This document shows positions 491 to 62,854 of a DNA stretch of 64,000 nt, in pieces. The position numbers and the translations under genes were made by a program. The stretch lies in contig JBDNFI010000012.1 of the NCBI GenBank assembly GCA_041689935.1, forward strand, positions 5,483 to 69,482, read 5' to 3'. The notes beneath the pieces are model-generated. The model made no database searches and was not told the origin of the DNA. It saw nothing but the letters and a program-made list of their open reading frames with translations. The DNA is from Cyclobacteriaceae bacterium (lineage in GTDB: Bacteria; Bacteroidota; Bacteroidia; Cytophagales; Cyclobacteriaceae). Every line of letters starts with the position of its first letter. The first letter of the stretch is position 1.

Positions 491-1165
491 ATGCAATTTC
501 CCGAAATATTGTTTGAAGATAATCATTTGCTGGTGGTCAATAAGCCAGCGGGATTACTTGTGCAAGGTGATGATACGGGCGATATTACTTTGCTGGACCT
601 TGCCAAGGAATATATAAAGGATAAATATAATAAGCCTGGAAATGTGTATATCGGACTGCCGCATCGACTGGATAGGCCGGTAAGTGGGGTGGTATTACTT
701 GCCAAAACATCAAAGGCACTGGAAAGATTGAACAAGATTTTTAAATCGCGGGAGGTGAAAAAGATGTATTGGGCATTGGTGGAGAAAAGACCAACTATTG
801 AAACAGGGAGGCTTATGCATTATCTAGTGAAAAATGCCAAATTGAATATAACCAAAGCCTACGTAACCGAGCGAACTGATTCAAAATTTGCTGATTTGAG
901 TTATGAATTGCTGCAAGAAGTGGGAGGTAAGTTTTTACTAGAAGTAAGCCCTGTCACCGGCCGGCCTCATCAAATTCGGGTGCAATTGGCTAGTATGGGT
1001 TGCTCCATAGTGGGTGACTTGAAGTATGGAAGCCCTAAGCCAAATAGAGATGCAAGTATTTGTTTGCATGCAAGGTCATTACAATTGATACATCCTGTCA
1101 CTAAGGTGGAGATCAGGATTGAAGCCGATCCTCCCGCCGTTTTCAAAGCATATTTGAAATCCTAG
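491..1165 (+). CDS. RluA-family pseudouridine synthase
   Basis: 224 aa with the HRLDRPVSG catalytic-Asp motif and a PHQIRVQL block typical of RluA/RsuA-fold synthases. No S4 domain. Confidence 0.85.
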   Translation: MQFPEILFEDNHLLVVNKPAGLLVQGDDTGDITLLDLAKEYIKDKYNKPGNVYIGLPHRLDRPVSGVVLLAKTSKALERLNKIFKSREVKKMYWALVEKRPTIETGRLMHYLVKNAKLNITKAYVTERTDSKFADLSYELLQEVGGKFLLEVSPVTGRPHQIRVQLASMGCSIVGDLKYGSPKPNRDASICLHARSLQLIHPVTKVEIRIEADPPAVFKAYLKS

Positions 1166-1179
1166 AACGTATTGCGCAT

Positions 1180-1216
1180 AAAAAAAGCCCTAATTCGTGA
1201 AAATTAGGGCTTTTGT
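1180..1216. terminator. Bidirectional rho-independent terminator between convergent rluA-like gene and atpC
   Basis: The sequence is aaaaaaagccctaatt-cgtga-aaattagggcttttgt: a 10-bp stem flanked by an A-run and a T-run. Confidence 0.8.
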
Positions 1217-1232
1217 ATGTATGCTTGAAATT

Positions 1233-1475
1233 TTATTTTGCGGATTCAGCCAATAGAATGAGTTTATTATTAACCACTTCTACCACACCACCATCTATTT
1301 GTACGGAATGAGTACCTCCTTTTGTCACGTAAGTTACAGGACCCTTTGAAAGAGAACTAATTATAGGGGCGTGATTTTCTAGTATTTGAAACAAACCGTT
1401 GCTTCCTGGAAAGGTCGCAGAGATTACTTCTCCCTCGAATACTTTGCTGTCCGGTGTGATTATTTCTAAAAACAT
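1233..1475 (-). CDS. atpC: F0F1 ATP synthase subunit epsilon (short form)
   Basis: 80 aa lying immediately downstream of atpD. It has the beta-sandwich N-domain pattern (ITPD...EGEV..A.FPG..G.F.IL..HAP). Confidence 0.85.
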   Translation of the reverse strand: MFLEIITPDSKVFEGEVISATFPGSNGLFQILENHAPIISSLSKGPVTYVTKGGTHSVQIDGGVVEVVNNKLILLAESAK

Positions 1476-1481
1476 GCTGTA

Positions 1482-4400: not shown

Positions 4401-5723
4401 TTAATTTTTCATAAATAGCCATTTGCCAAGGGTTTTGTAATTAACCTTGGTGCCATGCATTAATATTCCGATCCGGTAAATTCTTCCTGCAAACCAGATA
4501 GTGCCCAAAAAGCCTAGGACAAGAAGCACCATACTCAACGCCAACTCCCACGCTGGAACGCCAAATCCAAGCCTGCCGACCATTGTGATAGGCGATGTAA
4601 ATGGGATAATGGAGAGCCAGAAAGTTACTTGTCCATTGGGTTCATTTAGCACGAACATAAATAGACCGATAATGGAAATAATCAATGGGATGGTGATTGG
4701 AAACATAAATTGCTGTGCTTCGGACGGATTTTCGACAGCAGAACCAACCGCTGCGAATAATGCCCCGTAAAGCAAATATCCACCAACAAAATAGAAAAGG
4801 AATACCGAGATGATATAGACAAAAGGAATGTTATTCACCATTTCCATAATTTCAGCCACTTTAGGATTCGATGCAAAATCTTCACCAGAAGCCTGAGCCA
4901 CGTTTCCTGCTACTTGATCCATCATTGCATCGGACGGATTGGTCAAGCCAAAGAAACTGAATACCGCCATGGACAATACTGCAATGAGCGTAATCCAAAT
5001 GAGCAATTGGGTTAACCCCACAGAGGCAATTCCCAAGACTTTGCCAAGCATAAGTTGGAAAGGTTTCACTGTCGAAACCACAATTTCAACAATCTTATTC
5101 GACTTTTCTTCTATCACGCCTTGCATTACCTGTGCGCCATAAATAAAGATGAAAAGGTAAATGAGAAATCCTCCCGCGTAGCCTACTCCAAAGGAAAGAC
5201 CTGCGCTGCTTTCTACTTCTTCGCCCGTTTCACTTAGGTTGATAGATCTTACCGTAACACTTGTTTTTAACGCTTCTAGCACCGCTGGATCTACGCCAGA
5301 TTCTTTCAGCTTCATGTCTTCAATCTGATTTTTGATCGTGCTTTCCAAATCACCAATCATGGTAAGGCTGGGATTGGTTTTGGTATAAATGGCAATCCCA
5401 GTAGGTTCATAGATATCAAATTCAGGAAGATGCAAGATGCCAAAATCATCACTTTTATTTAGGTCTTCTTTTGCTTCATCTATGGTCATTTCTGACTTCA
5501 CAAAATAAAAGCGGGAGGTTTCGGTAAAATCAAATCTACCAGAATCATCTATCACTCGAACCACATCTTGGGTTTGAGTTTTCTGTTCATTAATTGCTAA
5601 ATAAATGAGCCCTCCCATTAAAATTGGAAATATTAATGGGGTAAGTACCGTGGCTATCAGAAAAGATTTTTTCTGAACACGACTTAGAAACTCCCTTTGT
5701 ATAATTAGTAAAACCTTATTCAT
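4401..5723 (-). CDS. ABC-2 type transporter permease (NatB-like)
   Basis: 440 aa with an N-terminal TM segment, a large extracytoplasmic loop and a C-terminal cluster of TM helices. It overlaps the upstream ATPase gene by 8 nt. Confidence 0.8.
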   Translation of the reverse strand: MNKVLLIIQREFLSRVQKKSFLIATVLTPLIFPILMGGLIYLAINEQKTQTQDVVRVIDDSGRFDFTETSRFYFVKSEMTIDEAKEDLNKSDDFGILHLPEFDIYEPTGIAIYTKTNPSLTMIGDLESTIKNQIEDMKLKESGVDPAVLEALKTSVTVRSINLSETGEEVESSAGLSFGVGYAGGFLIYLFIFIYGAQVMQGVIEEKSNKIVEIVVSTVKPFQLMLGKVLGIASVGLTQLLIWITLIAVLSMAVFSFFGLTNPSDAMMDQVAGNVAQASGEDFASNPKVAEIMEMVNNIPFVYIISVFLFYFVGGYLLYGALFAAVGSAVENPSEAQQFMFPITIPLIISIIGLFMFVLNEPNGQVTFWLSIIPFTSPITMVGRLGFGVPAWELALSMVLLVLGFLGTIWFAGRIYRIGILMHGTKVNYKTLGKWLFMKN

Positions 5724-6750: not shown

Positions 6751-7641
6751 TCAATCCTTGTGTCTAAAAATAATAGAGCCCATGGCTACATTCACGTCGA
6801 AGTTGAGCAAGTTCTTGTCATCTCCTGTGTAATACTGATTGGCATACAGGTTTTTCGAAATTTCCTTAAAATTGGATGGTAGGGTAACTGAACAAAGCGG
6901 GGAGCTTCGTAATTTTATCAAAATAGGGGCATTTGTCAGGGGCATAATTACTTCTAATTTTCCAGCACCCACACTTGCAAATATTTCGCAACTGTTTTCG
7001 GCTTTGTCGGAGAAGTCTAGCAATAAAGACCCAAATCCTACATCTGCCTTGATATGGTTTGCTTTTGATTTATTGATTTTGTGAATTTCTAATGATCCCA
7101 AATCTACATTAACTAAAAAGCTATCCATTTCGACACGGTTGGCTTTCCCTGTGAGGTAGCCAACTTTCACATCCGCACTACCCGTGGAGATGCGAAGTTT
7201 CTCTACAGCGAGTCCGGATAAATCTAAATAGGCATTGCCAACGCCATACTGTAGGTCTAAGTCATAAGGTTTTTTGTCTGAGAGGTAGATGTTGTAATTC
7301 TGCTTGGTTTCGGATTTTTTTGATCCGAGCATTTTCAAGGCAAGTACATTTTCGGCTTTTCCGGTGCTGCCTTGTAATTTGAATTCGGCATGGAGAATGC
7401 CCTCCCGCAATTCTGTGCTCATAATTGGGTCTACTAGCTGTGGTTCAGCATTTCCATACACCATTATGTTTTTACTGGTATTGCCTGGGCGAATATAGCA
7501 GGAAGCAGATGGTGCGGAAAGACTGAACTTCACTCTTTCATAAGAATTATCTTCGTTTACCGCGAATTGAGTCTTTTTTTGTGATAACGCTGTAAAATGG
7601 ATACAGATAACTGCCAAAAATAATATTATCCTGTAATGCAT
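6751..7641 (-). CDS. Secreted beta-strand-repeat protein (DUF4097/toastrack-like), function unknown
   Basis: It has a signal peptide (MHYRIILFLAVICIHFTALSQ). It also carries repeated GSxxV/L motifs (GSADVKV, GSLEI, GFGSLLLD, GAGKLEV, MGSIIF). Confidence 0.5.
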   Translation of the reverse strand: MHYRIILFLAVICIHFTALSQKKTQFAVNEDNSYERVKFSLSAPSASCYIRPGNTSKNIMVYGNAEPQLVDPIMSTELREGILHAEFKLQGSTGKAENVLALKMLGSKKSETKQNYNIYLSDKKPYDLDLQYGVGNAYLDLSGLAVEKLRISTGSADVKVGYLTGKANRVEMDSFLVNVDLGSLEIHKINKSKANHIKADVGFGSLLLDFSDKAENSCEIFASVGAGKLEVIMPLTNAPILIKLRSSPLCSVTLPSNFKEISKNLYANQYYTGDDKNLLNFDVNVAMGSIIFRHKD

Positions 7642-11701: not shown

Positions 11702-11819
11702 TAGTTACAATAAGTTTTTTAGAGAATTAATTTGATTGATTCTTCCAATAAATGGCGAAATTACAAACTATTTGCAGAAGAACGATGTCCGAGTGTGATT
11801 AGATTAAAAGCGGGAGGAA

Positions 11820-12764
11820 TTAATCCAACTCACTAAAGAACTTTTTGTAGAGGTTCAACATGCTTTTAATATCCTTTTTATTCACCTTTTCGGTAGGCGT
11901 ATGCGCCCCGTGGATGGGTGCTCCTACAAAACACCAATCGATTGGATAGGGCGAGGTCTGCAATTCGCGTCCATCGCTTGACCCTCCCTCTTCTACCTCC
12001 CGCTGATATGGGATTTCTGAACCCTCCGCTATTGAGAGGATTTTGTTGATAAATATCTTTCTCGGTATATTTCTATCTCTCAGCGATATAGCAGCACCTT
12101 TTCCATGATACACACCATCCGTTACCCAAGTAATGTCGGAGATTAATGCTTGGTACACGCCAAATTCTTCAACCATAAATTTGGCAAGAAAAGGAACGCT
12201 CCCACCTCCATGCTCCTCCCAAGTGCTAAATACCAGTAAGCCATTCTCCAAGGTTTCTGCCAGTTTCAACAGGTTGAATACGCCCAAGCGATTATCCAAA
12301 TATGCGGAGCTAATGTGATCTTTGGTTTCTTCGAAATGGACTTCATAGGAAAGGGGAGTGCCCGATTGTATTCCTCTACCAAAGTGATAAAATGCATGCC
12401 CTTCCTTATCCGAAACAAGCGAACACCTGATCGGGCCAAGGGCATCTTCTCCAACAAGCATGGTGCTGTCCTCCGCATCTGGAGAGCCTACGGACACCAA
12501 TTGATTTTCGTAGCGGACGGTGAAGCCTACCGTATCGGTATGCGCAAAGGCGGCCACTTTCGGCTTGCCAAACGCCAAGACTAAAGTATCCTGAAAACCA
12601 TCCCCGAAATACATAACAGGTTTGCTTTTCCAATTGGGCATCCCTTCCTTCACATATTCAATAATGAAATCTCGGATGGCTGCTTCGTTTCCAGACGTTC
12701 CTGGTATATCGCAGAGTTGCTTTAGTAGATCAAATTCCTTCATTATTCGCAAAGCTAATCCCAA
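11820..12764 (-). CDS. M42-family metallopeptidase (glutamyl aminopeptidase/endoglucanase-like)
   Basis: The N-terminus LLKQLCDIPGTSGNEAAIRDFI is typical of M42 proteins, and metal-ligand-like H/D/E positions are present. Family assignment is from memory only. Confidence 0.65.
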   Translation of the reverse strand: MGLALRIMKEFDLLKQLCDIPGTSGNEAAIRDFIIEYVKEGMPNWKSKPVMYFGDGFQDTLVLAFGKPKVAAFAHTDTVGFTVRYENQLVSVGSPDAEDSTMLVGEDALGPIRCSLVSDKEGHAFYHFGRGIQSGTPLSYEVHFEETKDHISSAYLDNRLGVFNLLKLAETLENGLLVFSTWEEHGGGSVPFLAKFMVEEFGVYQALISDITWVTDGVYHGKGAAISLRDRNIPRKIFINKILSIAEGSEIPYQREVEEGGSSDGRELQTSPYPIDWCFVGAPIHGAHTPTEKVNKKDIKSMLNLYKKFFSELD

Positions 12765-14416: not shown

Positions 14417-14863
14417 ATGACCCTAGAACTTTTATTGCAGTATTTTGCAATTTTTTCAGTAAGCATTTTCAAATTTATTGCAGGCCCGATACTGGGGATG
14501 ACAACCGGCACAGATAGCTGGATTACGGCATTGCTCACAGTGGGAGGTATGATGACTGGCGTAGTCGCGGTCACTTTGGCGGGCAAACCCATGAGAATAT
14601 TTATCAACAAGAAGTTCTTCTCAAGAAGAAAAAAGTTTTCTGCTAAAAACAGGCGATTTGTAAAGCTTTGGGGGAGTTATGGGGTGTTCGGGGTTTCTTT
14701 TCTGACGCCTGTGATTCTCAGCCCAATTGGTGGGTCACTGTTGGTAGCGAGTATGGGAGGCAAAACCTCCCGCATTCTTTTGTGGATGACCTTAAGTGCT
14801 ATTTTCTGGGGAATTATCTTCTCCCAAGGTATTTTCTTCTTTGCAGATTATTTTAACTCCTAA
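14417..14863 (+). CDS. Small integral membrane protein, function unknown
   Basis: 148 aa with four predicted hydrophobic helices and a basic loop (KKFFSRRKKFSAKNRRF). It starts 2 nt after the antiporter stop. Confidence 0.5.
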   Translation: MTLELLLQYFAIFSVSIFKFIAGPILGMTTGTDSWITALLTVGGMMTGVVAVTLAGKPMRIFINKKFFSRRKKFSAKNRRFVKLWGSYGVFGVSFLTPVILSPIGGSLLVASMGGKTSRILLWMTLSAIFWGIIFSQGIFFFADYFNS

Positions 14864-43645: not shown

Positions 43646-43646
43646 T

Positions 43647-44610: not shown

Positions 44611-44640
44611 AAAACCCTACTAAAGCTAGCAGGGTTTTTT
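44611..44640. terminator. Bidirectional rho-independent terminator downstream of tRNA-Ser
   Basis: The sequence is aaaaccctacta-aagc-tagcagggtttttt: an 8-bp stem with one mismatch, flanked by A6 and T6. Confidence 0.75.
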
Positions 44641-44647
44641 GTTGATG

Positions 44648-48734: not shown

Positions 48735-48904
48735 AAGAGAAAGCCCCAGTGATTTTGCCAGAGTTTATATTCCGAATACAGCGGGAGGATAAATGATCTT
48801 CATGTTGATTGAAAATCCATTTACCATTGCCAATGGAACGCTCACTGATCTGCCAATAAAAGAAGATTAATCTTTTATGCATTCTGTAGCTCAATGCTAT
48901 TTAT

Positions 48905-49698: not shown

Positions 49699-51093
49699 TT
49701 ATAAGTGAATCACTTCATCGTAAGCTGCCGCGGCCGCCTCCATGATCGCTTCCGACATAGTTGGGTGTGGATGAACTGATTTAATGATTTCGTGCCCAGT
49801 AGTTTCTAGCTTTCTAGCGACTACTATTTCGGCAATCATTTCCGTGACGTTAGTACCTAACATGTGCGCGCCAAGTAGCTCACCATATTTGGCATCAAAT
49901 ATCAATTTCACAAAACCATCTGCAACACCTCCCGCTTTTGCTTTTCCGGAAGCAGAGAATGGGAACTTACCCACTTTGATATTGAAACCAGCTTCCTTAG
50001 CTGCTTTCTCAGTATATCCAACCGATGCAACTTCAGGAATGCAATAGGTACAGCCTGGAATATTATTGTAATTGAGTGGCTCTGGATTATGACCCGCAAT
50101 CTTCTCTACACAAATAATGCCCTCAGCAGAGGCCACGTGCGCTAGGGATTGGCCTTTTACAATATCGCCGATAGCATATACGCCGTCTACATTTGTTTTG
50201 TAAAAATCATCTACGATTACTTTGCCTTTCTCGGTTTTTACGCCAGTAGCTTCCAAGCCAATTCCTTCTATATTGGTCGCAATCCCTACCGCTGAAAGGA
50301 CAATCTCGCATTCTATAATTTCTTCACCTTTTGGCGTTTTTACGGTTACTTTACAGCCTTTACCTTTGGTGTCTACTTTGGTTACTTCCGACTTGGTCAT
50401 GAATTTCATTCCCGCCTTTTTGTAAATCCTCTCTAGTCCTTTTGATACTTCTTCATCTTCGACAGGAAGTATTCTGTCCATATATTCTACTACAGTTACT
50501 TCCGTACCGATGGAGTTGTACAGATAAGCAAACTCCATCCCGATAGCGCCAGAACCAACTACCACCATAGAAGCAGGCTGCTTTTCTAAGGTCATCGCTT
50601 TGCGGTATTCAACCACTTTTTGGCCGTCGATAGGTAGGTTTAGCAGTTCTCTTGCCCTCCCGCCTGTTGCCAATATGATGTGATTTGCTGTGTATTCTGT
50701 GGTTTTGCCACTATCGTCTTTTACATCTACTTTCTTGCCTTTTTTCAAGGTGCCGAAACCAGATATATGGTCTATTTTATTCTTTTTAAGAAGAAATTGG
50801 ATGCCTTTGCTCATTCCATCTGCCACATTTCTACTTCTCTTTACCATGCCTGTGAAATCTGGACTGGCGTTTTCTACATTAATGCCATAATCTTTGGCAT
50901 GCTTGATATATTCAAATACTTGGGCACTTTTCAGAAGGGCTTTTGTTGGGATACAACCCCAATTGAGGCAGATACCGCCAAGTTCGGTTCTTTCCACTAC
51001 CCCTACTTTCATTCCTAGCTGTGAAGCTCTGATAGCGGCAACATAACCACCCGGCCCACTGCCTATTACAATCAAATCGTATTTTGCTGACAT
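49699..51093 (-). CDS. lpdA: Dihydrolipoyl dehydrogenase
   Basis: GSGPGGY FAD motif, redox-active disulfide GGICLNWGCIPTK and C-terminal HPHPTMSE. Confidence 0.96.
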   Translation of the reverse strand: MSAKYDLIVIGSGPGGYVAAIRASQLGMKVGVVERTELGGICLNWGCIPTKALLKSAQVFEYIKHAKDYGINVENASPDFTGMVKRSRNVADGMSKGIQFLLKKNKIDHISGFGTLKKGKKVDVKDDSGKTTEYTANHIILATGGRARELLNLPIDGQKVVEYRKAMTLEKQPASMVVVGSGAIGMEFAYLYNSIGTEVTVVEYMDRILPVEDEEVSKGLERIYKKAGMKFMTKSEVTKVDTKGKGCKVTVKTPKGEEIIECEIVLSAVGIATNIEGIGLEATGVKTEKGKVIVDDFYKTNVDGVYAIGDIVKGQSLAHVASAEGIICVEKIAGHNPEPLNYNNIPGCTYCIPEVASVGYTEKAAKEAGFNIKVGKFPFSASGKAKAGGVADGFVKLIFDAKYGELLGAHMLGTNVTEMIAEIVVARKLETTGHEIIKSVHPHPTMSEAIMEAAAAAYDEVIHL

Positions 51094-52116: not shown

Positions 52117-54186
52117 ATGACCAAAATACTATTTGAGTATTCGCCGTGGTTATTAATTCCTGCCGCAGGTGTAGGTTTTTTGTTCGCTTGGCTGCTTTAT
52201 GCCAAAAAAGGACCTTGGCCAATACGTATCCACAAATTGCTTTTCGGCCTACGTGTATTGGTGTTCACGGTAATTGCCTTCCTTTTGCTCGGCCCGCTCC
52301 TTAGGCAGATTGAAAATTACTTTGAGAAGCCTGAAATCATTCTTGCCTGGGACAATAGCCTTTCAGTCAGTGCAGGGACAGATTCTTTAGCCCTTGCCAA
52401 TTTGCAGGGGCGATTGATTTCGGAAGCAGCTGTTTGGCGAGAAAATGGCTTCGATGTGAATATTCAAGCCTTTGACCGTGATAAGGAGGCCTTCGGAACC
52501 ATCCCTAGTTTTTCCTCCCGTCAAACTAATCTGCACGACCAGCTAAAGAGAATTGAAGAGCAAAGTGAAGGAAATAACTTACGCCAAGTCCTACTTATTT
52601 CCGACGGAATTAATAACGCAGGACTCAATCCATCTTTTCAACTTTATGGCTTTAATCTAAGTACTTTTGGGCTGGGAGACACCATTCCAAAAAGAGATAT
52701 TCTGATTAGCTCGCTGCGCTTTAATAAAATCAGTTATAAAGGTTCCAGATTTCCAATTGTAGCTGAAATTGCTCAAAATGGCTACGAGGGAGTAAGTACG
52801 CAAGTGCGAGTATTAAGAGGCGGGAAGGTAATTGAAAGTCAAATTATTTCTTTTAGCTCTGGCGAGAATTTCAAAACAGCGGAATTCTTGATTGAAGCAG
52901 AAGGCGATGGCTTACAAACCTACCAAATTGCCATTGATCCAGTACAGGGGGAATTTACACGGGAAAATAATCAAAAATCAGCCTTTGTGGAGGTGATAGA
53001 GGCAAAGCAACAAATTTTAATAGTAGCTGCTGCCCCACATCCAGATATAAAAGCACTTAGAAGTGTATTAGAGCAAAGTAATGCCTATGAGCTCACCGTA
53101 CACATTCATGGCATTGATGATTGGGTTTATACTGAAGAATTTGACTTGGCCATTTTGCATCAACTCCCAAGTAGGATAGCGGATGCTAATTCAATTTTGG
53201 AGCGAATCCCATCCTCTACTCCAAAGTGGTATATCATGGGTAGCCAAACGGATTTGAATTTATTTAGCCAAATGAATGGGTTGATGGAATTACGCCGGAC
53301 TTCCCCACAGCCAGATAGAGTATTTCCTGCCTTTAGCGATAATTACGATCGCTTTGTTTTTGAAACAGAGCAAAGAGACTTCCTTCGAAACCTCCCGCCC
53401 GCTGCTGTGCCGTTTGGAGAATATATCATTTATCCAAATGCTGAAATCATGCTTTTTCAGCGCGTTGGAAATGTGCTTACTGATAGGCCATTATTAATGA
53501 CTGGAATGGTAGGCGATGCGAAAACTGCGGTGATGATAGGCGAAGGCTTGTGGAATTGGCGAATGGACAATATAAAGCGGGAGGGAACGGAATTTGATCA
53601 GCTTTTTTCTAAGCTTATACAATATTTGGCCGCTCGTGAAGACAATCGAAAGTTTCGTTTCTATCCAATCAAAAATGAATGGGACGAAGGCGAAACCATT
53701 GTTTTCGAAAGTGAAGGGTATAACGATATCTTAGAAAAAATTTATAACTATCAGGTAGATATTAAGATTACGAATGAAGCGGATAGCTCAATGGAGTACA
53801 CATACGAGCCAACTGCTAGTTCGGCAAGATATCGTGTTTCTGGTCTGAAACCGGGCATTTATCGCTATGAGGGAAGGACTAGCCTGCAAGGAAATGCTGA
53901 AGTAGATAGAGGAGAATTTCTGGTAACAAGACGCGAGGTTGAGCTGAACAACCTCACGGCCAATCATGGCCTTATGCGCTCATTGGCGACGAACCACGGT
54001 GGAAAATATTACAATATCAACGAAGTAGATGCCCTTATTGCTGATTTTGAAGCCCTTGACCCAACACAAAGAATTATAAGTGAGGAAACATTTTTACCTG
54101 CTAATCGCTTGCTGTGGCTGTTTTTATTGATTGTATTGATAGCAGGTGTTGAATGGTTTTTAAGAAAATATTACGGATCTTATTAA
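52117..54186 (+). CDS. Large conserved membrane protein (BatA-N-like double-TM anchor, C-terminal TM), function unknown
   Basis: 689 aa with two TM helices at the N-terminus, one at the extreme C-terminus and a long soluble middle. No catalytic motif recognised. Confidence 0.5.
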   Translation: MTKILFEYSPWLLIPAAGVGFLFAWLLYAKKGPWPIRIHKLLFGLRVLVFTVIAFLLLGPLLRQIENYFEKPEIILAWDNSLSVSAGTDSLALANLQGRLISEAAVWRENGFDVNIQAFDRDKEAFGTIPSFSSRQTNLHDQLKRIEEQSEGNNLRQVLLISDGINNAGLNPSFQLYGFNLSTFGLGDTIPKRDILISSLRFNKISYKGSRFPIVAEIAQNGYEGVSTQVRVLRGGKVIESQIISFSSGENFKTAEFLIEAEGDGLQTYQIAIDPVQGEFTRENNQKSAFVEVIEAKQQILIVAAAPHPDIKALRSVLEQSNAYELTVHIHGIDDWVYTEEFDLAILHQLPSRIADANSILERIPSSTPKWYIMGSQTDLNLFSQMNGLMELRRTSPQPDRVFPAFSDNYDRFVFETEQRDFLRNLPPAAVPFGEYIIYPNAEIMLFQRVGNVLTDRPLLMTGMVGDAKTAVMIGEGLWNWRMDNIKREGTEFDQLFSKLIQYLAAREDNRKFRFYPIKNEWDEGETIVFESEGYNDILEKIYNYQVDIKITNEADSSMEYTYEPTASSARYRVSGLKPGIYRYEGRTSLQGNAEVDRGEFLVTRREVELNNLTANHGLMRSLATNHGGKYYNINEVDALIADFEALDPTQRIISEETFLPANRLLWLFLLIVLIAGVEWFLRKYYGSY

Positions 54187-54226: not shown

Positions 54227-55018
54227 ATGAAGTCATATTTCCTTTTATTAATTTTGTTTACGGCGATTTCCTGCACCGATCACAAAAAGTCTGGCGATGA
54301 ATACTTTGCTGAGGGAAATTACAAACAAGCTATTAAGCATTTTGACTATATTATCGAATACAACCCATTCGATAATCAGACTATTTTCAAACGTGCCAGA
54401 GCCAAACAGGAACTAGAACTGTACGAGGAAGCTATAGTTGATTTGGAACGGGCGATAACGATAGATAAGAGTAATTTCAGCTATTTTTTTACACGTGGAA
54501 TGTGCTACTGGGGATTGGAGAACATAGAAGGTGCCGCTATTGATTTTCGAAATGCTTCTAATATAAATAAAAAAGACTTTGATTCATTTTTGATGCTTGG
54601 TAGAGCCTATATAAAATTAGGCGAAAGAGCAAAGGCTTACGATGCGATGGAATCTGCGGTAGAATTGGATGAGGAAAATTTGGGCGGGAGGTATTATCGT
54701 GGAATCGCACGTGCCAGATATGGCGATATTCTAGGAGCGGTAATCGATCTTTCCTACTATTTGAATGAGAACAAGGATGATACGAATGCCTTGTACAATC
54801 GTGCCATCTGCTATATTGGGGAAGGATTTTATATGGGAAGCATAAGAGATTTCACCCGATTATTAGAGCTCGAACCGGACAATGATCTAGCAGCGGTGCA
54901 TCGAGCCATCTCTTATGCGCGTATCGGCAATACAGTTATTGCCTGCCGGGAGTTAGGTAGATTGGCCAAAAAGGGAGACGAAACAAGTATAAAACTATTG
55001 GAGGAATATTGTAGGTAA
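54227..55018 (+). CDS. Tetratricopeptide-repeat lipoprotein
   Basis: The lipobox is FTAISC. It contains repeated 34-aa A/Y/G-patterned TPR units. Confidence 0.75.
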   Translation: MKSYFLLLILFTAISCTDHKKSGDEYFAEGNYKQAIKHFDYIIEYNPFDNQTIFKRARAKQELELYEEAIVDLERAITIDKSNFSYFFTRGMCYWGLENIEGAAIDFRNASNINKKDFDSFLMLGRAYIKLGERAKAYDAMESAVELDEENLGGRYYRGIARARYGDILGAVIDLSYYLNENKDDTNALYNRAICYIGEGFYMGSIRDFTRLLELEPDNDLAAVHRAISYARIGNTVIACRELGRLAKKGDETSIKLLEEYCR

Positions 55019-55514: not shown

Positions 55515-58055
55515 CTATTTTTCAGCGTCCTTATCTACAAGTCCTTTTTTAAGGCTAACGACTATTTCTTCTGCCCCATCTACATGGTCGGCCAATAATG
55601 TATCACCCACCTGAATTTCTCCTCTAAGGATTTCCTCTGCAATCGGGTCTTCCAAATATTTTTGGATCGCTCTATTGAGTGGTCTTGCTCCATATTGTGG
55701 ATCATATCCCTTTTCTGATAAGAAATCTTTTGCCTTTTCGCTGAGTTCAATTTCGTACCCTAAATCCTTGATACGAACAAATAGCTTGCTCAAAGAAATA
55801 TCAATGATTTTGTGAATATGCTCTTTTTGTAGAGAATTGAATATAATCACGTCATCCAAACGATTCAAAAATTCCGGACTAAAGGTCTTCTTGAGGGCTT
55901 TCTGTATGGTATCTCTCATCACATCATCTATTGCTTCTTGTTTTGTTTGTGAGGCAAAACCAATTCCCGCACCGAAATCCTTTAGATCGCGCACGCCAAT
56001 GTTGGAAGTCATTATGATAATGGTATTTCTGAAGTCAACTCTTCGGCCTAAGCCATCTGTTAATATCCCATCGTCTAATACTTGAAGAAGGATATTATAC
56101 ACATCTGGATGCGCTTTCTCAATTTCATCAAGTAGGATTACTGCGTAAGGCTTACGTCGAACTTTCTCGGTCAATTGTCCACCTTCTTCATATCCAACAT
56201 AGCCTGGAGGTGCTCCAACCAAACGGGAGATCGAGAATTTCTCCATATACTCACTCATATCTATACGGATAAGTGAATCGTCTTTATCAAAAAGATACGT
56301 TGCAAGAACTTTTGCTAATTCAGTTTTTCCCACACCTGTTGGGCCTAAGAATACGAAAGAGCCTATTGGCTTTTTCGGGTCTTTGAGACCAACCCTTGTG
56401 CGCTGTATTGCTTTAGTCAATTTCTTAATAGCCTCTTCTTGGCCTATTACTTTGCCTGCAAGTGATTCACCCATTTTCAGTAATTTTGCACTTTCATTTT
56501 GCGCAATTCTATTTACCGAAATACCAGTAATCATAGCAATTACTTCTGCTACATTTTCTTCGTCAACCGTATAGCGTTGATTCTTGGTTTCTTCTTCCCA
56601 TCGAAGTTTTGCCGCATCCAGCTCTTCAAGAAGTTTTTTCTCTTTATCGCGGAGCCTTGCAGCTTCTTCGTATTTCTGGCTTTTTACAACATTATTTTTA
56701 TCTTTCTTCACATCCTCTATGTCCGACTCTAGCTGCTCGATATCAGCAGGAACATGGATATTTTTGATGTGAACACGCGCTCCTGTTTCATCCAAAATAT
56801 CAATTGCTTTATCAGGAAGAAAACGATCGCTAATGTATCTGTCAGACATTTTGACACAAGCTTCAATAGCAGCTTGGGAATAGTTAACATGGTGATGCTC
56901 CTCGTACTTATCTTTTATGTTTTCAAGTATTTGGATGGTTTCATTTATTGTGGTTGCATCCACCATCACCATTTGGAATCTACGAGCAAGAGCACCGTCT
57001 TTCTCTATATATTGTCTGTACTCATCTAAGGTAGTAGCACCGATACATTGGATTTCGCCACGAGAAAGCGCTGGCTTGAACATGTTACTTGCGTCAAGAG
57101 AGCCTGAAGCACCTCCCGCTCCAACAATTGTGTGCAATTCATCAATGAAAAGAATGACATCTTTCGATTTTTCCAATTCATTCATTACCGCCTTCATTCG
57201 TTCCTCAAATTGGCCACGGTATTTTGTTCCCGCTACCAATGAAGCCAAATCAAGCGTTACCACTCTTTTATTGAAAAGGACTCTTGAAACTTTTTTCTCA
57301 ATTATTCTTAGGGCGAGGCCTTCTGCGATGGCAGTTTTACCCACTCCAGGCTCACCTATTAATATTGGGTTGTTTTTCTTTCGACGGCTAAGGATTTGAG
57401 CTACTCGCTCTATTTCTTTTTCACGTCCCACAATCGGATCCAACCTGCCATCTTCTGCAAGTCTGGTCAAGTCGCGACCAAAATTGTCTAGCACTGGTGT
57501 TTTGGATTTCTCGGCACCTTTAGCAGAACCCATGCCTCCAGCAGAGCTGCCCGAGCTACCGAACACTTTGCTGCTATCATCGTCGTTGCCATCAGTATCG
57601 GAAGCAGCCATAGGGCTGTCCGATTTATACTCAAGAAGTTCCTTTACCACATCATAACTTACATTATATTTTTCCATCACTTGAGTAGGTAGGCTATCTT
57701 CGTCGCGGAGAATTGATAATAATAAATGCTCCGTACCGATTAGCTGGCTTTTAAATATTTTTGCTTCTAAATAAGTGATTTTCAGCACTTTTTCAGACTG
57801 CCTAGTAAGAGGGATATTTGCTAAGTTTTTGACGTTATGCGATGCAGTTCCCTTAGTAGCTTTTTCCAAAGCCTGTCTCATTTCATCTAACGGAACGCCT
57901 AATTTTTTCAGAAGAGATACGGCTACACCTTCGCCCTCCCGCAATAACCCAAGCACCAAGTGCTCAGTACCAATATAGTCATGCCCCAGGCGCAAAGCTT
58001 CCTCGCGGCTAAGGGATATTACTTCTTTTACTCGATTCGAAAATTTTGCTTCCAT
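55515..58055 (-). CDS. clpC: ATP-dependent Clp protease ATP-binding subunit ClpC-type (class I AAA+)
   Basis: Two Clp_N repeats, Walker A GEPGVGKTA (D1) and GPTGVGKTE (D2), and a UVR-like linker (YEEAARLRDKEKKL). 846 aa. Confidence 0.93.
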   Translation of the reverse strand: MEAKFSNRVKEVISLSREEALRLGHDYIGTEHLVLGLLREGEGVAVSLLKKLGVPLDEMRQALEKATKGTASHNVKNLANIPLTRQSEKVLKITYLEAKIFKSQLIGTEHLLLSILRDEDSLPTQVMEKYNVSYDVVKELLEYKSDSPMAASDTDGNDDDSSKVFGSSGSSAGGMGSAKGAEKSKTPVLDNFGRDLTRLAEDGRLDPIVGREKEIERVAQILSRRKKNNPILIGEPGVGKTAIAEGLALRIIEKKVSRVLFNKRVVTLDLASLVAGTKYRGQFEERMKAVMNELEKSKDVILFIDELHTIVGAGGASGSLDASNMFKPALSRGEIQCIGATTLDEYRQYIEKDGALARRFQMVMVDATTINETIQILENIKDKYEEHHHVNYSQAAIEACVKMSDRYISDRFLPDKAIDILDETGARVHIKNIHVPADIEQLESDIEDVKKDKNNVVKSQKYEEAARLRDKEKKLLEELDAAKLRWEEETKNQRYTVDEENVAEVIAMITGISVNRIAQNESAKLLKMGESLAGKVIGQEEAIKKLTKAIQRTRVGLKDPKKPIGSFVFLGPTGVGKTELAKVLATYLFDKDDSLIRIDMSEYMEKFSISRLVGAPPGYVGYEEGGQLTEKVRRKPYAVILLDEIEKAHPDVYNILLQVLDDGILTDGLGRRVDFRNTIIIMTSNIGVRDLKDFGAGIGFASQTKQEAIDDVMRDTIQKALKKTFSPEFLNRLDDVIIFNSLQKEHIHKIIDISLSKLFVRIKDLGYEIELSEKAKDFLSEKGYDPQYGARPLNRAIQKYLEDPIAEEILRGEIQVGDTLLADHVDGAEEIVVSLKKGLVDKDAEK

Positions 58056-58168: not shown

Positions 58169-58810
58169 TTAATTCTTCTTCCTAATAGATGCCAAAAGCA
58201 AGGATTTTGCTTGGGGTCCTTCACAAAAGAGGAGATCCAGAATCGATAGGTTGTTCGCAAAGTCTGCGCCAAACACTTGATAGTATGACATTGGGTCAAA
58301 TTCTAAAATATCATGAATCGATTTATTAGGTTGAAGACTGTTTCTTAAATCGATCACGCTTATTTCAGGCTGTTTTTCAAATGTTTGTGTATATTCTACG
58401 TGAACGTTGAAATTCAATAATTTAAGACATTTTGTCAGGATTAGCCTGTTCAAATCCAAAAGGCGGGAGGGTTTAGCTTCAAGAATATCTCGGATGTCAT
58501 TTTCAAAAAACTCGAAATAGGGAGCATTTCCGTATCCCGACTGGATGGTGCGCCAATGAATATCTGTCCATCTTTGAGAATAATCAATTTCTATATCCTT
58601 AATGGCCTGTTTGCTACTGCCTGTTACAGGGACGGAAAGAGCCGTAACATTATTTGCAGTCTGGATGTAGCACCTATTTCTATAGCTTTGCTTCCTGAAG
58701 TTCTCCTGCGTTTCTAACCGGATAGTATTGAAGCGCAATAGTTGGGCAAACCAAGCAATGCTTGGGAAGTAATGCATTTCAATAAGGGCGGTAGATGTTT
58801 CTGCTGGCAC
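58169..58810 (-). CDS. WbqC-family protein
   Basis: HYFPSIAWFAQLL....RLE..ENF.KQSYRNRC.I is the characteristic WbqC N-terminus. Confidence 0.7.
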   Translation of the reverse strand: MPAETSTALIEMHYFPSIAWFAQLLRFNTIRLETQENFRKQSYRNRCYIQTANNVTALSVPVTGSSKQAIKDIEIDYSQRWTDIHWRTIQSGYGNAPYFEFFENDIRDILEAKPSRLLDLNRLILTKCLKLLNFNVHVEYTQTFEKQPEISVIDLRNSLQPNKSIHDILEFDPMSYYQVFGADFANNLSILDLLFCEGPQAKSLLLASIRKKN

Positions 58811-59484: not shown

Positions 59485-59637
59485 AGTTTATTATTTACCC
59501 AAAGTTAAGCTTTTTTTATTTCTGGCATGGCTAATTTCACGAGGCATAATTGGATTCTGAGCAAAAACCTACTTGACGAAGATGATATTATCCTCCCGCC
59601 ATTTTGTAATATAGCATTCGGATTAAACGTAATAATT

Positions 59638-60561
59638 ATGCGAAAGAGTATCTATTCATTTCTACACCTAATTTTCATTTTCAGCTTTGCTTGTACTACC
59701 CAAGCACAAGAGCTCAAGACTATTTCCATCAATAATGCCACCGAAACTTCCCTCTTTCTCAAATGGAGTGAAGAACGGGTACCAATGATTTCTGCTCATA
59801 GAGGTGGGCCAGCACCAGGATTTCCAGAAAACTGTATTGGGACATTTGAGAATACAATCAAATATACTCACGCAATTATTGAATGTGATATTGCGATAAC
59901 TTCGGATGGGCATTTGGTAATGATGCATGACAATACACTGGATCGCACTACTAACGGTACAGGTAAGGTCAATGAGGTGACGTTGGAATATATTCAGTCA
60001 TTATACTTGAAAGATGATGGGGGCAATTTGACAAATTTTCAGGTACCAACATTGCGGGAGGTTTTGGAATGGGGTAAGGGCAAAGTGGTTTTTACCTTGG
60101 ATGTGAAGCGTGGCGTTCCTTTCGAAAAAGTTACTGATTTGATTATCGAAACAGAAACCAGCCATTTGTCGATAATGATTACCTACAATATGGAAGCCGC
60201 CATGCAAGTGCATGAATTGATTCCTGATTTGCCGATTTCTATGTCGCTTGGTAGTATGGATGCCATCGAACAATGGCGCAAAACAGGTATTCCTGCTGAA
60301 AATGTAGTGGCGTTTGTCGGCACCTCCGAAAGAGATGCCGAGCTATATGATGTTTTGCATAAAGAAGGAATTTACTGTATTTTAGGTACTATGGGGAACT
60401 TAGACAGAAGCGCGGCTACAAATGGCGATGAACTCTACGCCAACCTGATTCGAAATGGTGCAGATATCCTATCTACAGATAGACCAATAGAAGCTGCCAA
60501 AGCTCTTGCGCCAATGGTCAACACAGAAAGCAGATTTTATCAAAGATTTTTCAAAAACTAA
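59638..60561 (+). CDS. Glycerophosphodiester phosphodiesterase family protein (secreted)
   Basis: ISAHRGG...PENC and ECDI...DGHLVMMHD motifs. The ATG at 59638 gives a signal peptide. The track start at 59527 adds 37 non-signal residues. Confidence 0.8.
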
Positions 60562-60563
60562 AA

Positions 60564-61586
60564 ATGATAGATTTAAGAAGCGACACCGTTACAAAACCAA
60601 CACCTAAAATGATGCAGGCAATGATGTCTGCAAAAGTGGGTGATGACGTGTTTGGCGAAGACCCAACGGTAAATGAATTGGAGCAGAAATTAGCTGCATA
60701 TTTCGGTATGGAGGCAGGGCTGTTTTGCCCGAGTGGCACCATGACCAACCAAATTGCTATTCGAATTTTGACCCAAGCTCAAGATGAAGTGATTTGCCAT
60801 AAATACTCGCATATTTACCTGTATGAAGGTGGTGGGCTTATGGCAAACTCACATGTTTCTGTTGCTTTGCTGGAAGGTGAAAATGGAATTTTGAGCGTAG
60901 AAGCCATAAAAGGAGCTATCAATAACCCAGATGATGTTCACCGTCCGCTTAGTAGAGTGGTAGCTTTGGAGAACACGATGAACAAAGGTGGAGGAGCAAT
61001 TTATCCGATGTCCACCATTCGTGAGATCAGCAAAATGGCGAGAGAACATGGTTTGGCGATGCATTTGGATGGAGCAAGACTTTTCAATGCATTGGTAGAA
61101 ACAGGCAACGATCCATTAGAATATGGGCAATGGTTCGATACTATTTCTATTTGCTTATCCAAAGGATTAGGTTGTCCTGTAGGTTCGGTTTTGCTTTCTT
61201 CCGCTGATAATATTCGCAAAGCACGGAGAGTGCGCAAAGTATTTGGAGGTGGCATGCGCCAAGCTGGATATTTGGCTGCTGCGGGTATTTATGCATTGGA
61301 TAATCATGTAAGCCGCCTCAAAGAAGACCACGATAAAGCGGCTAAATTAGGAGAAGTTTTAGCCACACTTGGTTGGGTCGAAAAAGTGAGTCCAGTTGCA
61401 ACCAATATTGTCATCTTCCATTTGATTCCAAGCTTAAATAATAAGGAAATCCTTACCAAACTTACCGAAGCGGGAATTGGTGGAGTACTCTTCGGACCTG
61501 GTCAAATTCGCTTAGTTACGCATTTGGACTTTAGCGATGAGCAATTGGCGCAAGCAATCGAAATTCTGAAAAGGTTCGAACCATGA
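60564..61586 (+). CDS. ltaE: Low-specificity L-threonine aldolase
   Basis: [13 protein letters not shown]-terminus and the PLP-lysine region SICLSKGLG. 340 aa. Confidence 0.88.
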
Positions 61587-62854
61587 GTTTATTCGCTTCA
61601 TCGGCTCCCTTAGCCGAGCGGATCAGACCTGAGGCGCTCGATGATCTCATAGGTCAGAAACACTTGGTAGGGCCAGGAAGTGTATTACGTTCGGTCATCA
61701 AATCAGGACATGTGCCTTCGCTGATTCTTTGGGGACCTCCTGGAGTGGGCAAAACAACGCTTGCGAATATTATAGCCAAGCAAGTGAAAACGCCTTTTGC
61801 GACGTTGAGCGCGGTAAGCTCTGGCGTAAAGGAGGTGCGGGAGGTAATACAACGAGCCAAAAATACAGGCCGAATTATCCTTTTTATAGATGAAATTCAC
61901 CGATTTAATAAATCCCAACAAGATGCTTTGCTGCAGGCCGTAGAAAAAGGCTACATCTCCTTGATTGGGGCGACTACGGAAAATCCATCTTTTGAGGTAA
62001 ACGCCGCATTGCTTTCTCGTTGCCAAGTGTATATTCTCAAAGCACTCGACGAAGCTGATTTGGTTAGCCTAATGAAAAAAGCACTCGAAGAGGACGAAGT
62101 GCTTGCAAAGAAGAAACTTGTACTTACAGAAACGGCAGCACTTATTCGCATTTCTGGTGGAGATGCCCGAAAGCTTTTAAACTTGCTGGAAATCGTCGCC
62201 GATTACTTGGATGAAGGAGAAGAAATCCTCGATGAAAGTGTGATGAAAATCGCACAGCAAAAAATAGCCATATATGATAAATCTGGAGAGCAACATTATG
62301 ATATCATTTCTGCATTTATCAAATCCATAAGAGGCAGCGATCCTAATGCAGCCTTGTATTGGCTTGCCCGAATGATAGAAGGCGGGGAGGATGTGAAATT
62401 TATCGCCCGTCGATTATTGATTTTGGCCTCCGAAGATATTGGCAACGCCAATCCAAATGCGCTCCTGCTTGCTACCACCACTTTTCAAGCCGTATCGATG
62501 ATTGGTTACCCGGAGTCTCGTATTATATTGGGGCAGTGTGCTACCTATTTGGCATGCTCACCCAAGAGCAATGCGGCCTATTTGGGAATAGACAAAGCCT
62601 TAGCCGAAGTACGAAATACTGGAGACCTACCTGTTCCTTTACCTATCCGAAATGCACCCACCCGCCTTATGAAAGATCAAGGTTATGGAAAAGGCTACAA
62701 ATATTCACATGACTTTCCAGGCAATTTTGCCTTCCAAGAATTTTTACCTGATGAACTAAGCCGTACCGTATTTTATGACCCAGGTAAGAATGCGCGGGAG
62801 GAAGAATTTCGTAAACAACTCCAAAAGCTTTGGAAGGATAAATACGACTATTGA
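61583..62854 (+). CDS. rarA: Replication-associated recombination protein A (AAA+ ATPase)
   Basis: LAERIRP..LD...GQ.HL, Walker A GPPGVGKTT, Walker B/sensor FIDEIHRFNK and a MgsA C-terminal domain. Confidence 0.93.
   Translation: MSLFASSAPLAERIRPEALDDLIGQKHLVGPGSVLRSVIKSGHVPSLILWGPPGVGKTTLANIIAKQVKTPFATLSAVSSGVKEVREVIQRAKNTGRIILFIDEIHRFNKSQQDALLQAVEKGYISLIGATTENPSFEVNAALLSRCQVYILKALDEADLVSLMKKALEEDEVLAKKKLVLTETAALIRISGGDARKLLNLLEIVADYLDEGEEILDESVMKIAQQKIAIYDKSGEQHYDIISAFIKSIRGSDPNAALYWLARMIEGGEDVKFIARRLLILASEDIGNANPNALLLATTTFQAVSMIGYPESRIILGQCATYLACSPKSNAAYLGIDKALAEVRNTGDLPVPLPIRNAPTRLMKDQGYGKGYKYSHDFPGNFAFQEFLPDELSRTVFYDPGKNAREEEFRKQLQKLWKDKYDY

Follow-up and report, generated by a model that had tools for sequence, protein, structure and literature searches.

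Words that are maintained across whole genomes at the level of the DNA are rare and poorly understood, and a mechanism is known for only two of them, the DNA uptake sequences (DUS) of the Neisseriaceae and the uptake signal sequences (USS) of the Pasteurellaceae; DUS/USS drive is the one established way in which each copy of a word can bias its own transmission. In cyanobacteria the octamer HIP1 (GCGATCGC) is enriched 15-300 fold, occurs more than once per gene and in all frames, and is conserved beyond codon usage (PMC5861425), and its function is still unexplained after decades (PMC5861425; PMC4390886). Here we describe the octamer GCGGGAGG (complement CCTCCCGC) in a 64-kb stretch of contig JBDNFI010000012.1 from Bacteroidota, the whole of which we call the window, and in its relatives of the marine genus Peijinzhouia (Cytophagales, family Peijinzhouiaceae). 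An earlier interpretation of the window (the sequence-only reading) had noticed the abundance of this octamer, had named DUS, USS and HIP1 as precedents and had no equivalent to offer from Bacteroidota. The precedents were well chosen, and in the literature searched there is no description of GCGGGAGG in Bacteroidota, nor any prior report of a DUS-, USS- or HIP1-like word in this phylum; the bare octamer appears there only in eukaryotic primers and promoters. To the sequence-only reading we add the confinement of the word to a single genus, its conservation at orthologous positions, a ninth position that is not C, and an upstream A-tract.

Abundance and sequence of the word

A pattern search of the window finds 41 exact copies, 19 on the + strand and 22 on the - strand; the count of 41 made earlier by eye, with all its coordinates, is thereby reproduced and does not fall below the mark of about 40. 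The density is 0.64 per kb, or about one copy per 1.5 kb, and GCGGGAGG is the top 8-mer of a window with 39.5% GC, above every A/T-rich word, though seven of its eight bases are G/C. Dinucleotide-preserving shuffles (n=100) give a mean of 0.78 copies and a maximum of 4, and Markov models of orders 0-3 predict 0.46-1.23. Orders 4 and 5 predict 4.4 and 17.8, expectations that are raised because the sub-words used for training derive almost wholly from GCGGGAGG itself: of the 45 occurrences that the 7-mers GCGGGAG and CGGGAGG each have, 41 are within the full octamer.

Codon-aware null models were run on 62 long non-overlapping open reading frames (ORFs), which make up 89.5% of the window. Shuffling synonymous codons within each gene, with proteins and codon usage kept, leaves 1.21 sense and 0.17 antisense copies, and permuting the codons of each gene leaves 0.49 and 0.14, where 27 and 10 are observed; the synonymous shuffle is conservative, because its codon pool contains the word's own codons. 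Enrichment is thus about 50-85 fold against composition, in keeping with the earlier estimate on the order of 50-100 fold, and it persists under the codon-aware null at 22 fold for sense and 59 fold for antisense copies (1.4 copies expected in total). The copies fall into 27 sense, 10 antisense and 4 intergenic ones and use all three frames and both orientations, so that the independence of frame and strand claimed by the sequence-only reading holds; its sense excess also stands, the exact share being 27 of 37 genic copies and not roughly 26 of 36.

The word is sharply bounded. One-mismatch variants (24 kinds pooled) occur 29 times against 18.6 expected, near chance, and over-representation, as (observed - expected)/expected, is 57.8, 0.56 and 0.07 at 0, 1 and 2 mismatches. 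This profile has the same shape as those published for DUS and USS, which are 183, 2.0 and 0.22 and 392, 4.8 and 0.65 (PMC1939737). Among the one-off variants listed earlier, CCGGGAGG is present at 2251 and 8280, CCTCCCGT lies at 40574 and 52514, one base from the positions first given, and the variant placed near 62384 is the one-base-insertion relative GCGGGGAGG (62383-62391, within rarA), showing that near-copies are not substitution variants alone.

At positions -5 to -3 upstream of the word, A fills 71 of 123 positions (p = 8e-10). The preference is alike in sense (45/81) and antisense (21/30) copies and so follows the word and not the transcript; the flanks of USS are AT-rich, and the A-tract recalls them. 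Directly 3' of the word C is found in 2 of the 41 copies, as rare as had been noticed before, and in 0/9, 0/16 and 0/18 copies of three other loci. The effective motif is AAA-N2-GCGGGAGG-D, that is, a core of 8-9 bp ending in A, G or T with a weak A-tract before it. Flank information content is about zero beyond roughly 5 bp, and this lack of wider similarity indicates that the copies did not come from a mobile element. A dispersed repeat of the repetitive extragenic palindrome (REP) or miniature inverted-repeat transposable element (MITE) type was rejected on the same grounds, there being no extended conserved sequence and no hairpins, with 37 of 41 copies inside genes; a terminator or hairpin role was likewise discarded, as a partner is found at 1/41 copies only and 4/41 are intergenic. 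The gaps between copies are roughly exponential (mean 1551 bp, coefficient of variation (CV) 0.84), and regular spacing of the window copies is not significant.

Orientation is balanced wherever it was counted: 19:22 (+:-) in the window, 8:8 and 4:5 in the Peijinzhouia loci L083 and L088, and 7:11 in a contig of the L094-L097 group, these contigs representing three species lineages and two unlinked loci and not all being mutually independent. With word copies masked, GC skew at fourfold-degenerate sites was split into a part that flips with gene direction (-0.118) and a direction-independent part (+0.069, bootstrap 95% CI 0.033-0.108). The latter has the same sign in all thirds of the window, a modest signal suggesting that the window lies within a single replichore. 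The absence of a polarity of the Chi or KOPS type (recombination and chromosome-segregation words, respectively), argued earlier from the window, is thus borne out by balance in several contigs and by a replication-related skew that is single-signed across the window.

Whether a peptide or a DNA word is being maintained was examined through the peptides able to spell GCGGGAGG: AGG, [SGRC]GR and xRE[GAVDE] in sense, and PPA, [SPTA]SR and xLP[LPHQR] in antisense. In the window proteins 37 of 77 synonymously compatible sites (48%) carry the word, about 1.0 being expected from codon usage, with 10 of 14 AGG sites and 13 of 22 xRE[GAVDE] sites occupied; AGG tripeptides and xREx peptides together make up 23 of the 41 copies. 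Spelling the word takes rare codons (CGG 8% of Arg, AGG 12% of Arg, GCG 16% of Ala), and occupancy is comparable between orientations (27/48 sense, 10/29 antisense). Outgroups retain the same peptides without GCGGGAGG: the word stands at 1 of their 32 compatible sites, where the clade has it at 15 of 26. The word is therefore a double-strand DNA-level signal that arises mainly through synonymous codon choice. A reshaping of the proteome toward GCGGGAGG was considered and rejected, since compatible peptides are no denser than in outgroups; a few sites do have amino-acid replacements (Ile to Leu, Thr or Lys to Arg), which a single outgroup cannot polarise. The protein-preserving null gives a sense to antisense ratio of about 7:1, stronger than the 2.7:1 observed (27:10), so that the sense excess is explained by coding tolerance and needs no role at the RNA level.

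Distribution and conservation in Peijinzhouia

Relatives were gathered through ClpC, which is encoded in the window. A search of one genome per GTDB species returned 80 loci, the best at 82% identity (metagenome-assembled genomes (MAGs) of Roseivirgaceae, Ohtaekwangia and Ekhidna); nearly all of them hold 0-1 copies of the word in up to about 22 kb, and only a few, which are rich in GC or distant relatives, reach 3-5. In a large protein collection the ClpC relatives stand at 100% and 96% identity, then, after a gap, at 86% and 85%, and the 90%-identity clusters of both ClpC and FtsH hold proteins named Peijinzhouia sedimentorum. Counts in the loci on either side of this gap are:

Window, word-positive: 41 copies in 64 kb
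L083 (ClpC 96% identity, JGI metagenome), word-positive: 16 copies in 20.9 kb (8 on +, 8 on -)
L094-L097 (P. sedimentorum group, including a TARA ocean contig), word-positive: 13-18 copies in 18.5-22.5 kb
L088 (unlinked FtsH locus, same genus cluster), word-positive: 9 copies in 15.2 kb (4 on +, 5 on -)
L084, sister lineage, word-negative: 1 copy
L085, sister lineage, word-negative: 3 copies
L091, L092 and L093, sister lineages, word-negative: 1 copy each

Outside the window the density in the word-positive loci (L083, L088 and L094-L097) is 0.59-0.80 per kb, the Peijinzhouia counts resting on about 120 kb of non-redundant DNA from two chromosomal regions; the sister lineages (85-86% ClpC identity) and about 80 further loci have 0-5 copies each. 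Among the loci compared, the hyperabundance of GCGGGAGG is confined to Peijinzhouia, and GC-matched relatives show no enrichment, so that the word is not equally frequent in unrelated genomes of similar codon usage. No related or other hyperabundant word was found in the nearest lineages, and there is thus no dialect series.

Two loci of one word-negative sister organism (JGI sample 3300045922), L085 and L092, together hold 4 copies in 44.6 kb where about 0.8 are expected; all three L085 copies lie at GGR or AGG peptides, and the slight excess may be chance or the trace of an incipient or decayed signal. Other words that appeared hyperabundant elsewhere were mostly local repeats (L004, L069, L034) or peptide biases (PDD/PDE in L043, [IL]DE in L064). 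In L004 (5361-5995) short hairpin repeats based on CCCCTCCT ... AGGAGGGG are clustered, about 650 bp holding ten arms; this is a local REP-like array and not a dispersed word, and in L069, an Odoribacteraceae MAG, positions 6019-6215 hold about ten tandem copies of a 21-bp unit (GGTCCGCGGAGATGGCAGAC...).

One locus stands apart from these. In L036 (JAGFIZ010000106.1, 1-22457) the octamer AGGGGGCT occurs 14 times (7 on +, 7 on -) in 22.5 kb, with 0.2 expected, in several frames and orientations and with a G-rich upstream flank. The contig belongs to an FCB-group MAG labelled Bradyrhizobiaceae, its ClpC being nearest to Bacteroidota and Rhodothermales loci (75% identity to L038); none of its nearest loci (L038, L035, L020) has the word. 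It may be a second independent case of the same phenomenon, one among about 60 sizeable loci examined, and hyperabundant words of this kind may recur.

Within Peijinzhouia, whose species are in general 81-84% identical, the copies are old. The window and L083 share a syntenic 14 kb at 81-82% identity, in which the orthologous site holds an intact word for 11 of the 12 copies of the window and for 11 of the 14 of L083; each of the four non-shared sites is a single transition away. Ordinary 8-mers are fully conserved at 20.9% in this alignment (p = 3e-7 for the excess in the word), and identity per base is 0.99 within GCGGGAGG and 0.79-0.81 in the 30-nt flanks. Fourfold-degenerate sites are identical at 18 of 19 positions within the word against 43.6% outside it, where they are near saturation (p = 4e-6). 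Across three lineages (window, L083 and the P. sedimentorum group), 10 of 16 union sites are perfect in all, against a background of 10.8% (p = 9e-7). Copies of the word thus predate the divergence of the known species and have stayed in place since then.

The two copies in clpC illustrate what is being kept. From Peijinzhouia to Pedobacter the ClpC peptides VGAGGAS and G[LIM][LI]REGEG do not vary, and eight outgroups spell them with assorted codons; the GCGGGAGG spelling is found only in Peijinzhouia genomes, where even the wobble positions flanking the word vary. The earlier claim of selection on the nucleic-acid word, as against a protein motif, is upheld by these peptides and by the fourfold sites alike.

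Polymorphism was examined in four strains of the P. sedimentorum group (96-98% identical; 112 word columns and 13,768 others). Polymorphic columns are as frequent in the word (4.5%) as elsewhere (4.6%), whereas fixed differences between species are 8-fold fewer, at 2.7% against 21.3% (p = 2e-8). Cast in a McDonald-Kreitman-like form, this contrast gives p = 0.006. Word-breaking mutations, mostly C-to-T or G-to-A, thus segregate at a neutral rate and seldom fix, which points to a weak force at every copy and not a strong function at each site.

Some individual losses are of interest in their own right. The AGG site in clpC (57112-57119 of the window) reads GCTGGCGG in L094 and L097 and holds the word in L095, L096 and both other species; two changes within 8 bp between strains 96-98% identical suggest recombinational replacement of an allele over two point mutations. 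In L097 (ENA ERZ23398518 NODE_3198), and in no other strain, three further copies are broken by one substitution each (CTTCCCGC, GTGGGAGG, CCACCCGC), a number roughly neutral for its 228 private substitutions, which could reflect relaxed maintenance or low-coverage assembly noise. In L083 two copies of an element of about 150 bp (17885-18060 and 19433-19610) lie around a DUF4221 gene and have terminal inverted repeats with CACGCGTG (gctggcgCACGCGTG ... CACGCGTGcgccagc), resembling a MITE or an inverted-repeat pair.

The 41 copies of GCGGGAGG/CCTCCCGC in the window, among whose housekeeping genes are atpD, dnaJ/grpE, obg, recR, icd, lpd, clpC, rarA and mla genes, are as follows:

748..755, + strand: sense, frame 2 (SREV), pseudouridine synthase gene 491-1165(+)
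1130..1137, - strand: antisense (PPA), same pseudouridine synthase gene
5170..5177, - strand: sense, frame 0 (AGG), ABC-2 permease gene 4401-5723(-)
5511..5518, + strand: antisense (TSR), same ABC-2 permease gene
7401..7408, - strand: sense, frame 2 (LREG), gene 6751-7641(-)
11810..11817, + strand: intergenic, directly 3' of gene 11820-12764(-)
11996..12003, - strand: sense, frame 2 (QREV), M42 peptidase gene 11820-12764(-)
13525..13532, + strand: sense, frame 0 (AGG), Na/Ca exchanger gene 13480-14415(+)
14766..14773, - strand: antisense (TSR), gene 14417-14863(+); the sole copy with a near complementary partner (GGGAGG ttttg CCTCCC)
17254..17261, - strand: sense, frame 2 (LREE), PfkB kinase gene 16961-17950(-)
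17560..17567, + strand: antisense (NLPL), same PfkB kinase gene
18908..18915, - strand: sense, frame 2 (LREE), aminotransferase gene 17964-19160(-)
21638..21645, + strand: sense, frame 0 (AGG), 3' end of Na/solute symporter gene 20201-21649(+)
21940..21947, - strand: sense, frame 1 (SGR), MGMT-like gene 21676-22002(-)
22344..22351, - strand: sense, frame 0 (AGG), mechanosensitive channel gene 21992-22891(-)
23229..23236, - strand: antisense (ALPL), mlaE gene 23068-23847(+)
24760..24767, + strand: sense, frame 0 (AGG), mlaD-like gene 24520-25593(+)
25844..25851, + strand: sense, frame 1 (SGR), DUF2807 gene 25636-26319(+)
26005..26012, + strand: sense, frame 0 (AGG), same DUF2807 gene
26933..26940, - strand: sense, frame 0 (AGG), TauE gene 26827-27573(-)
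30921..30928, + strand: sense, frame 2 (ERED), unknown gene 30487-31398(+); lone copy in the low-GC segment 28.6-34.7 kb
34727..34734, - strand: intergenic, 3' of gene 33452-34660(+)
36107..36114, - strand: intergenic, between gene 34905-35870(-) and icd 36445-37911(-)
39764..39771, - strand: sense, frame 2 (LRED), 3' end of hipA-like gene 39729-41036(-)
40287..40294, + strand: antisense (PSR), same hipA-like gene
45297..45304, - strand: sense, frame 2 (TREV), BrkB-family gene 44788-45753(-); outgroup has TKEL here
46336..46343, + strand: antisense (NLPP), yceG/mltG gene 46166-47224(-); outgroup has the same peptide with different codons
47565..47572, - strand: sense, frame 0 (AGG), gene 47339-47740(-)
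48781..48788, + strand: intergenic, between convergent genes 48414-48734(+) and 48905-49501(-)
49928..49935, - strand: sense, frame 0 (AGG), lpd 49699-51093(-); perfect in 3/3 species lineages
50656..50663, - strand: sense, frame 1 (GGR), lpd; perfect in 3/3 species lineages
53391..53398, - strand: antisense (NLPP), unknown gene of 689 aa 52117-54186(+); perfect in 3/3 lineages
53577..53584, + strand: sense, frame 2 (KREG), same 689-aa gene; perfect in 3/3 lineages
54684..54691, + strand: sense, frame 1 (GGR), 263-aa gene 54227-55018(+); perfect in 3/3 lineages
57112..57119, - strand: sense, frame 0 (AGG of the invariant VGAGGAS), clpC 55515-58055(-); polymorphic among P. sedimentorum strains
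57935..57942, - strand: sense, frame 2 (LREG of GLLREGEG), clpC; first G from Leu TTG, most outgroups having Ile
58463..58470, + strand: antisense (PSR), wbqC-like gene 58169-58810(-); kept in L083 and most P. sedimentorum strains
59592..59599, - strand: in the 5' extension of the long GDPD ORF 59527-60561(+), intergenic if the shorter start of relatives is used; kept in L083
60054..60061, + strand: sense, frame 2 (LREV), GDPD gene 59527-60561(+); outgroup has LTEV
61837..61844, + strand: sense, frame 2 (VREV), rarA 61583-62854(+); L083 is one transition off (GCGAGAGG)
62794..62801, + strand: sense, frame 2 (AREE), rarA; perfect in 3/3 lineages

Two segments of the window are poor in the word:

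28618..34660, no strand: low-GC segment (about 35%) with five proteins, four without a Pfam match and one S41 peptidase; 1 copy in about 6 kb
41040..44732, no strand: word-free accessory island, GC 31-41%, adjoining tRNA-Ser (44647-44732); 0 copies

The first is also present in a second assembly of the same species (L087). The second has genes for an HTH regulator, which stands beside the HipA-like kinase, a HIT-domain/methyltransferase fusion, an HNH endonuclease and a DUF4357 protein, and it has the look of a tRNA-targeted accessory or defence island. That accessory DNA should be poor in the word hints at a signal that builds up the longer a segment has been resident.

Explanations for the maintenance of the word

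The combination of neutral polymorphism and few fixations points to weak purifying selection or biased conversion acting over thousands of interchangeable copies, for which it is the expected signature. A function that needs only some copies per length of DNA would hardly hold roughly 3000 interchangeable ones, and we therefore prefer a transmission bias at each copy: we infer that the pattern is best explained by a weak per-copy force of this kind, that is, by molecular drive. The best single reading, to which we lean only tentatively and by analogy, is a DUS/USS-like drive arising from sequence-biased uptake or recombination. A putative DNA receptor of a natural-transformation system, at the surface or in the periplasm, would favour fragments with GCGGGAGG; alleles bearing the word would be imported more often and then recombined into the chromosome, so that mutations creating the word would spread and those destroying it would be overwritten wherever the protein tolerates GCGGGAGG. 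As a side effect the word would let DNA from within the genus be recognised as self in genetic exchange. Strand symmetry, A/T-rich flanks, conservation in core genes and the lineage boundary all fit such a drive, and the word resembles DUS and USS in its density of about one copy per kb, its mismatch collapse of about 100 fold, its balanced orientation and its orthologous conservation within the lineage.

Several observations weigh against it. To our knowledge no sequence requirement has been shown for natural transformation in Riemerella, a member of the Bacteroidota. The contrast between polymorphism and divergence is built on 5 polymorphic columns, of which 3 come from the 8x-coverage metagenome contig L097. 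Depletion in putative acquired DNA, which the sequence-only reading had called only suggestive, has the expected direction without significance: 1 of 7 compatible sites is occupied in the two word-poor segments and 36 of 70 elsewhere (Fisher p = 0.11). Conservation, frame independence and steep mismatch profiles are shared by HIP1 and other abundant words and so do not single out uptake. A complementary partner (at least 6 nt within 35 nt) is found for only 1 of the 41 copies, and the intergenic density (4 copies in about 6.7 kb) is not above the genic one; the terminator and inverted-pair placement typical of the known systems is thus missing, about half of all DUS/USS copies lying in terminators, often as inverted pairs (10.1101/2025.10.24.684340). 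According to the same survey, from 2025, sequence-specific uptake is still confined to two proteobacterial families (10.1101/2025.10.24.684340).

The stronger proposal, that Peijinzhouia has a new sequence-specific system of DNA self-recognition, evolved independently in Bacteroidota with its own word of 8-9 bp and a hypothetical reader protein, is possible but more doubtful. The reader might be a receptor for uptake with no relation to ComP, or else a novel machine for sequence-directed gene conversion or repair that writes the word; AGGGGGCT, at the same density in L036, gives a hint that systems of this kind have arisen more than once and escaped notice. The question can be approached directly, given the sharp on/off boundary at about 85% ClpC identity and the existence of cultured P. 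sedimentorum, and a comparison of gene content across the genus boundary should nominate the reader protein. Assemblies exist for P. sedimentorum (GCA_042583725.1, GCA_049340005.1) and for the species of the window (GCA_041689515.1), and genomes of the genus also turn up in TARA and other marine metagenomes. Were GCGGGAGG a true uptake sequence, transformation that selects by sequence would be in evidence outside the Proteobacteria for the first time, with insight into how it works in a group whose route of DNA import across the outer membrane is unknown. The word also offers a ready marker by which Peijinzhouia contigs can be binned and DNA of horizontal origin within them recognised.

Among the alternatives to uptake-like drive, the one that survives best, while still unlikely, likens the word to HIP1: GCGGGAGG would be the site of a lineage-specific chromosomal protein, either nucleoid-associated or an orphan methyltransferase with its reader, under weak selection and with no role in uptake. 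HIP1 shows the same package of enrichment, frames and between-genome conservation (PMC5861425), and the equal genic and intergenic density, the lack of a link to terminators and the near-random spacing of GCGGGAGG fit HIP1 better than DUS/USS. Enrichment of at least 15 fold, frame independence and conservation are found here as in HIP1, but palindromy is not (GCGGGAGG differs from CCTCCCGC), so that symmetric methylation or dimer binding does not apply. With about half of the compatible sites filled, neutral polymorphism coupled to 8-fold fewer fixations over roughly 3000 sites strains classical selection; no candidate protein is known, and sister lineages have no comparable word.

Somewhat less likely again is that a helicase-nuclease of the AddAB/RecBCD type, or another DNA-degrading defence enzyme, reads GCGGGAGG as a Chi-like word, switching to recombination and marking the DNA as self. 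The word is G-rich, conserved in core genes and sparse in the accessory island, and it matches the Chi sequence of E. coli (GCTGGTGG) at 6 of 8 letters and a reported Chi variant of H. influenzae (GSTGGAGG) at 7 of 8. Known Chi words exceed their expected frequency only a few fold and come nowhere near saturation, whereas GCGGGAGG is enriched at least 50 fold and occupies 48% of its sites. Chi and KOPS are co-oriented with replication, but GCGGGAGG is balanced in every contig, and the window, with its direction-independent skew component of +0.07 (CI 0.03-0.11), apparently lies in one replichore. The Chi sequence of Bacteroidota AddAB is unknown (PMC2887965), leaving room for such a word; AddAB is widespread in the phylum, however, and GCGGGAGG ends at a genus boundary.

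We consider it improbable that repair alone drives the word, with a mismatch enzyme akin to VSP (very short patch) repair correcting near-cognate heteroduplexes toward GCGGGAGG in a form of biased gene conversion without uptake. The data do require a transmission bias per copy, something must oppose mutation bias to keep a GC-rich word in an AT-rich genome, and most losses are C-to-T or G-to-A transitions, the class that a VSP-type system reverses. Efficient correction, however, predicts depletion of one-mismatch variants, which stand at 29 against 18.6 expected, and the upstream A-tract preference is hard to accommodate. VSP repair yields only mild word biases, and we know of no repair enzyme with a non-palindromic specificity of 8-9 bp.

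A signal in RNA, in which the purine-rich form would pair with CCUCC of 16S rRNA or its complement would be a C-rich Rho-loading site in antisense transcripts, is highly improbable. It has in its favour that GGAGG lies within GCGGGAGG and that the purine-rich form is on the sense strand in 27 of 37 genic copies, but the protein-preserving null alone yields a bias of 7:1, above the observed 2.7:1, antisense copies are enriched about 59 fold, and copies are positioned anywhere along genes. The codon null, the similar occupancy in the two orientations (27/48 and 10/29) and the flank preferences, which track the word and not the transcript, led us to reject it. That the word is a by-product or artefact (codon or peptide bias, remnants of mobile elements, assembly or sequencing error) we regard as refuted for all practical purposes, despite the 23 of 41 copies at AGG or xREx peptides: protein- and codon-preserving shuffles give 1.4 copies and outgroups hold the peptides without GCGGGAGG (1/32 occupied against 15/26), which rules out a codon or peptide explanation, flank similarity ends at about 5 bp, and the same copies are present in independent NCBI, JGI, ENA/TARA and Logan assemblies.

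Comparison with known systems

Chi (GCTGGTGG and the AddAB Chi words), KOPS and the architecture-imparting sequences (AIMS) resemble GCGGGAGG in being G-rich, non-palindromic octamers over-represented in core DNA; they are strongly co-oriented with replication and modestly enriched, where GCGGGAGG is balanced and close to saturating. HIP1 is likewise an octamer used in all frames, conserved beyond codon usage and similarly dense in genes and spacers. It is, however, palindromic, tied to GATC/CGATCG methyltransferases and phylum-wide, whereas GCGGGAGG is asymmetric and belongs to one genus.

The DUS of Neisseriaceae, 10-12-mers read by the minor pilin ComP, share with GCGGGAGG their hyperabundance, non-palindromic sequence, steep mismatch profile, lineage specificity, conservation in core genes and, suggestively, scarcity in recently acquired DNA. 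They differ in forming dialects graded across genera, where the nearest sister lineages of Peijinzhouia are without a related word, and in having about half of their copies in terminators, where there are essentially no copies of GCGGGAGG; we know of no ComP-type receptor in Bacteroidota.

The USS of Pasteurellaceae (9-mer core AAGTGCGGT) is an unrelated word from an unrelated phylum, and GCGGGAGG departs from it in having no enrichment in terminators or inverted pairs and no raised intergenic density. The likeness between the two extends to a short exact core at about one copy per 1-1.5 kb of an AT-rich genome, mostly within genes, in several frames and on both strands without replichore polarity; to weaker A/T-rich flank preferences and an over-representation that falls roughly 100 fold at the first mismatch; and to occurrence at homologous positions in related species. 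In phylum, word and placement GCGGGAGG is novel with respect to the known words maintained genome-wide, and it makes Peijinzhouia a clean third case beside DUS and USS, in a different phylum.

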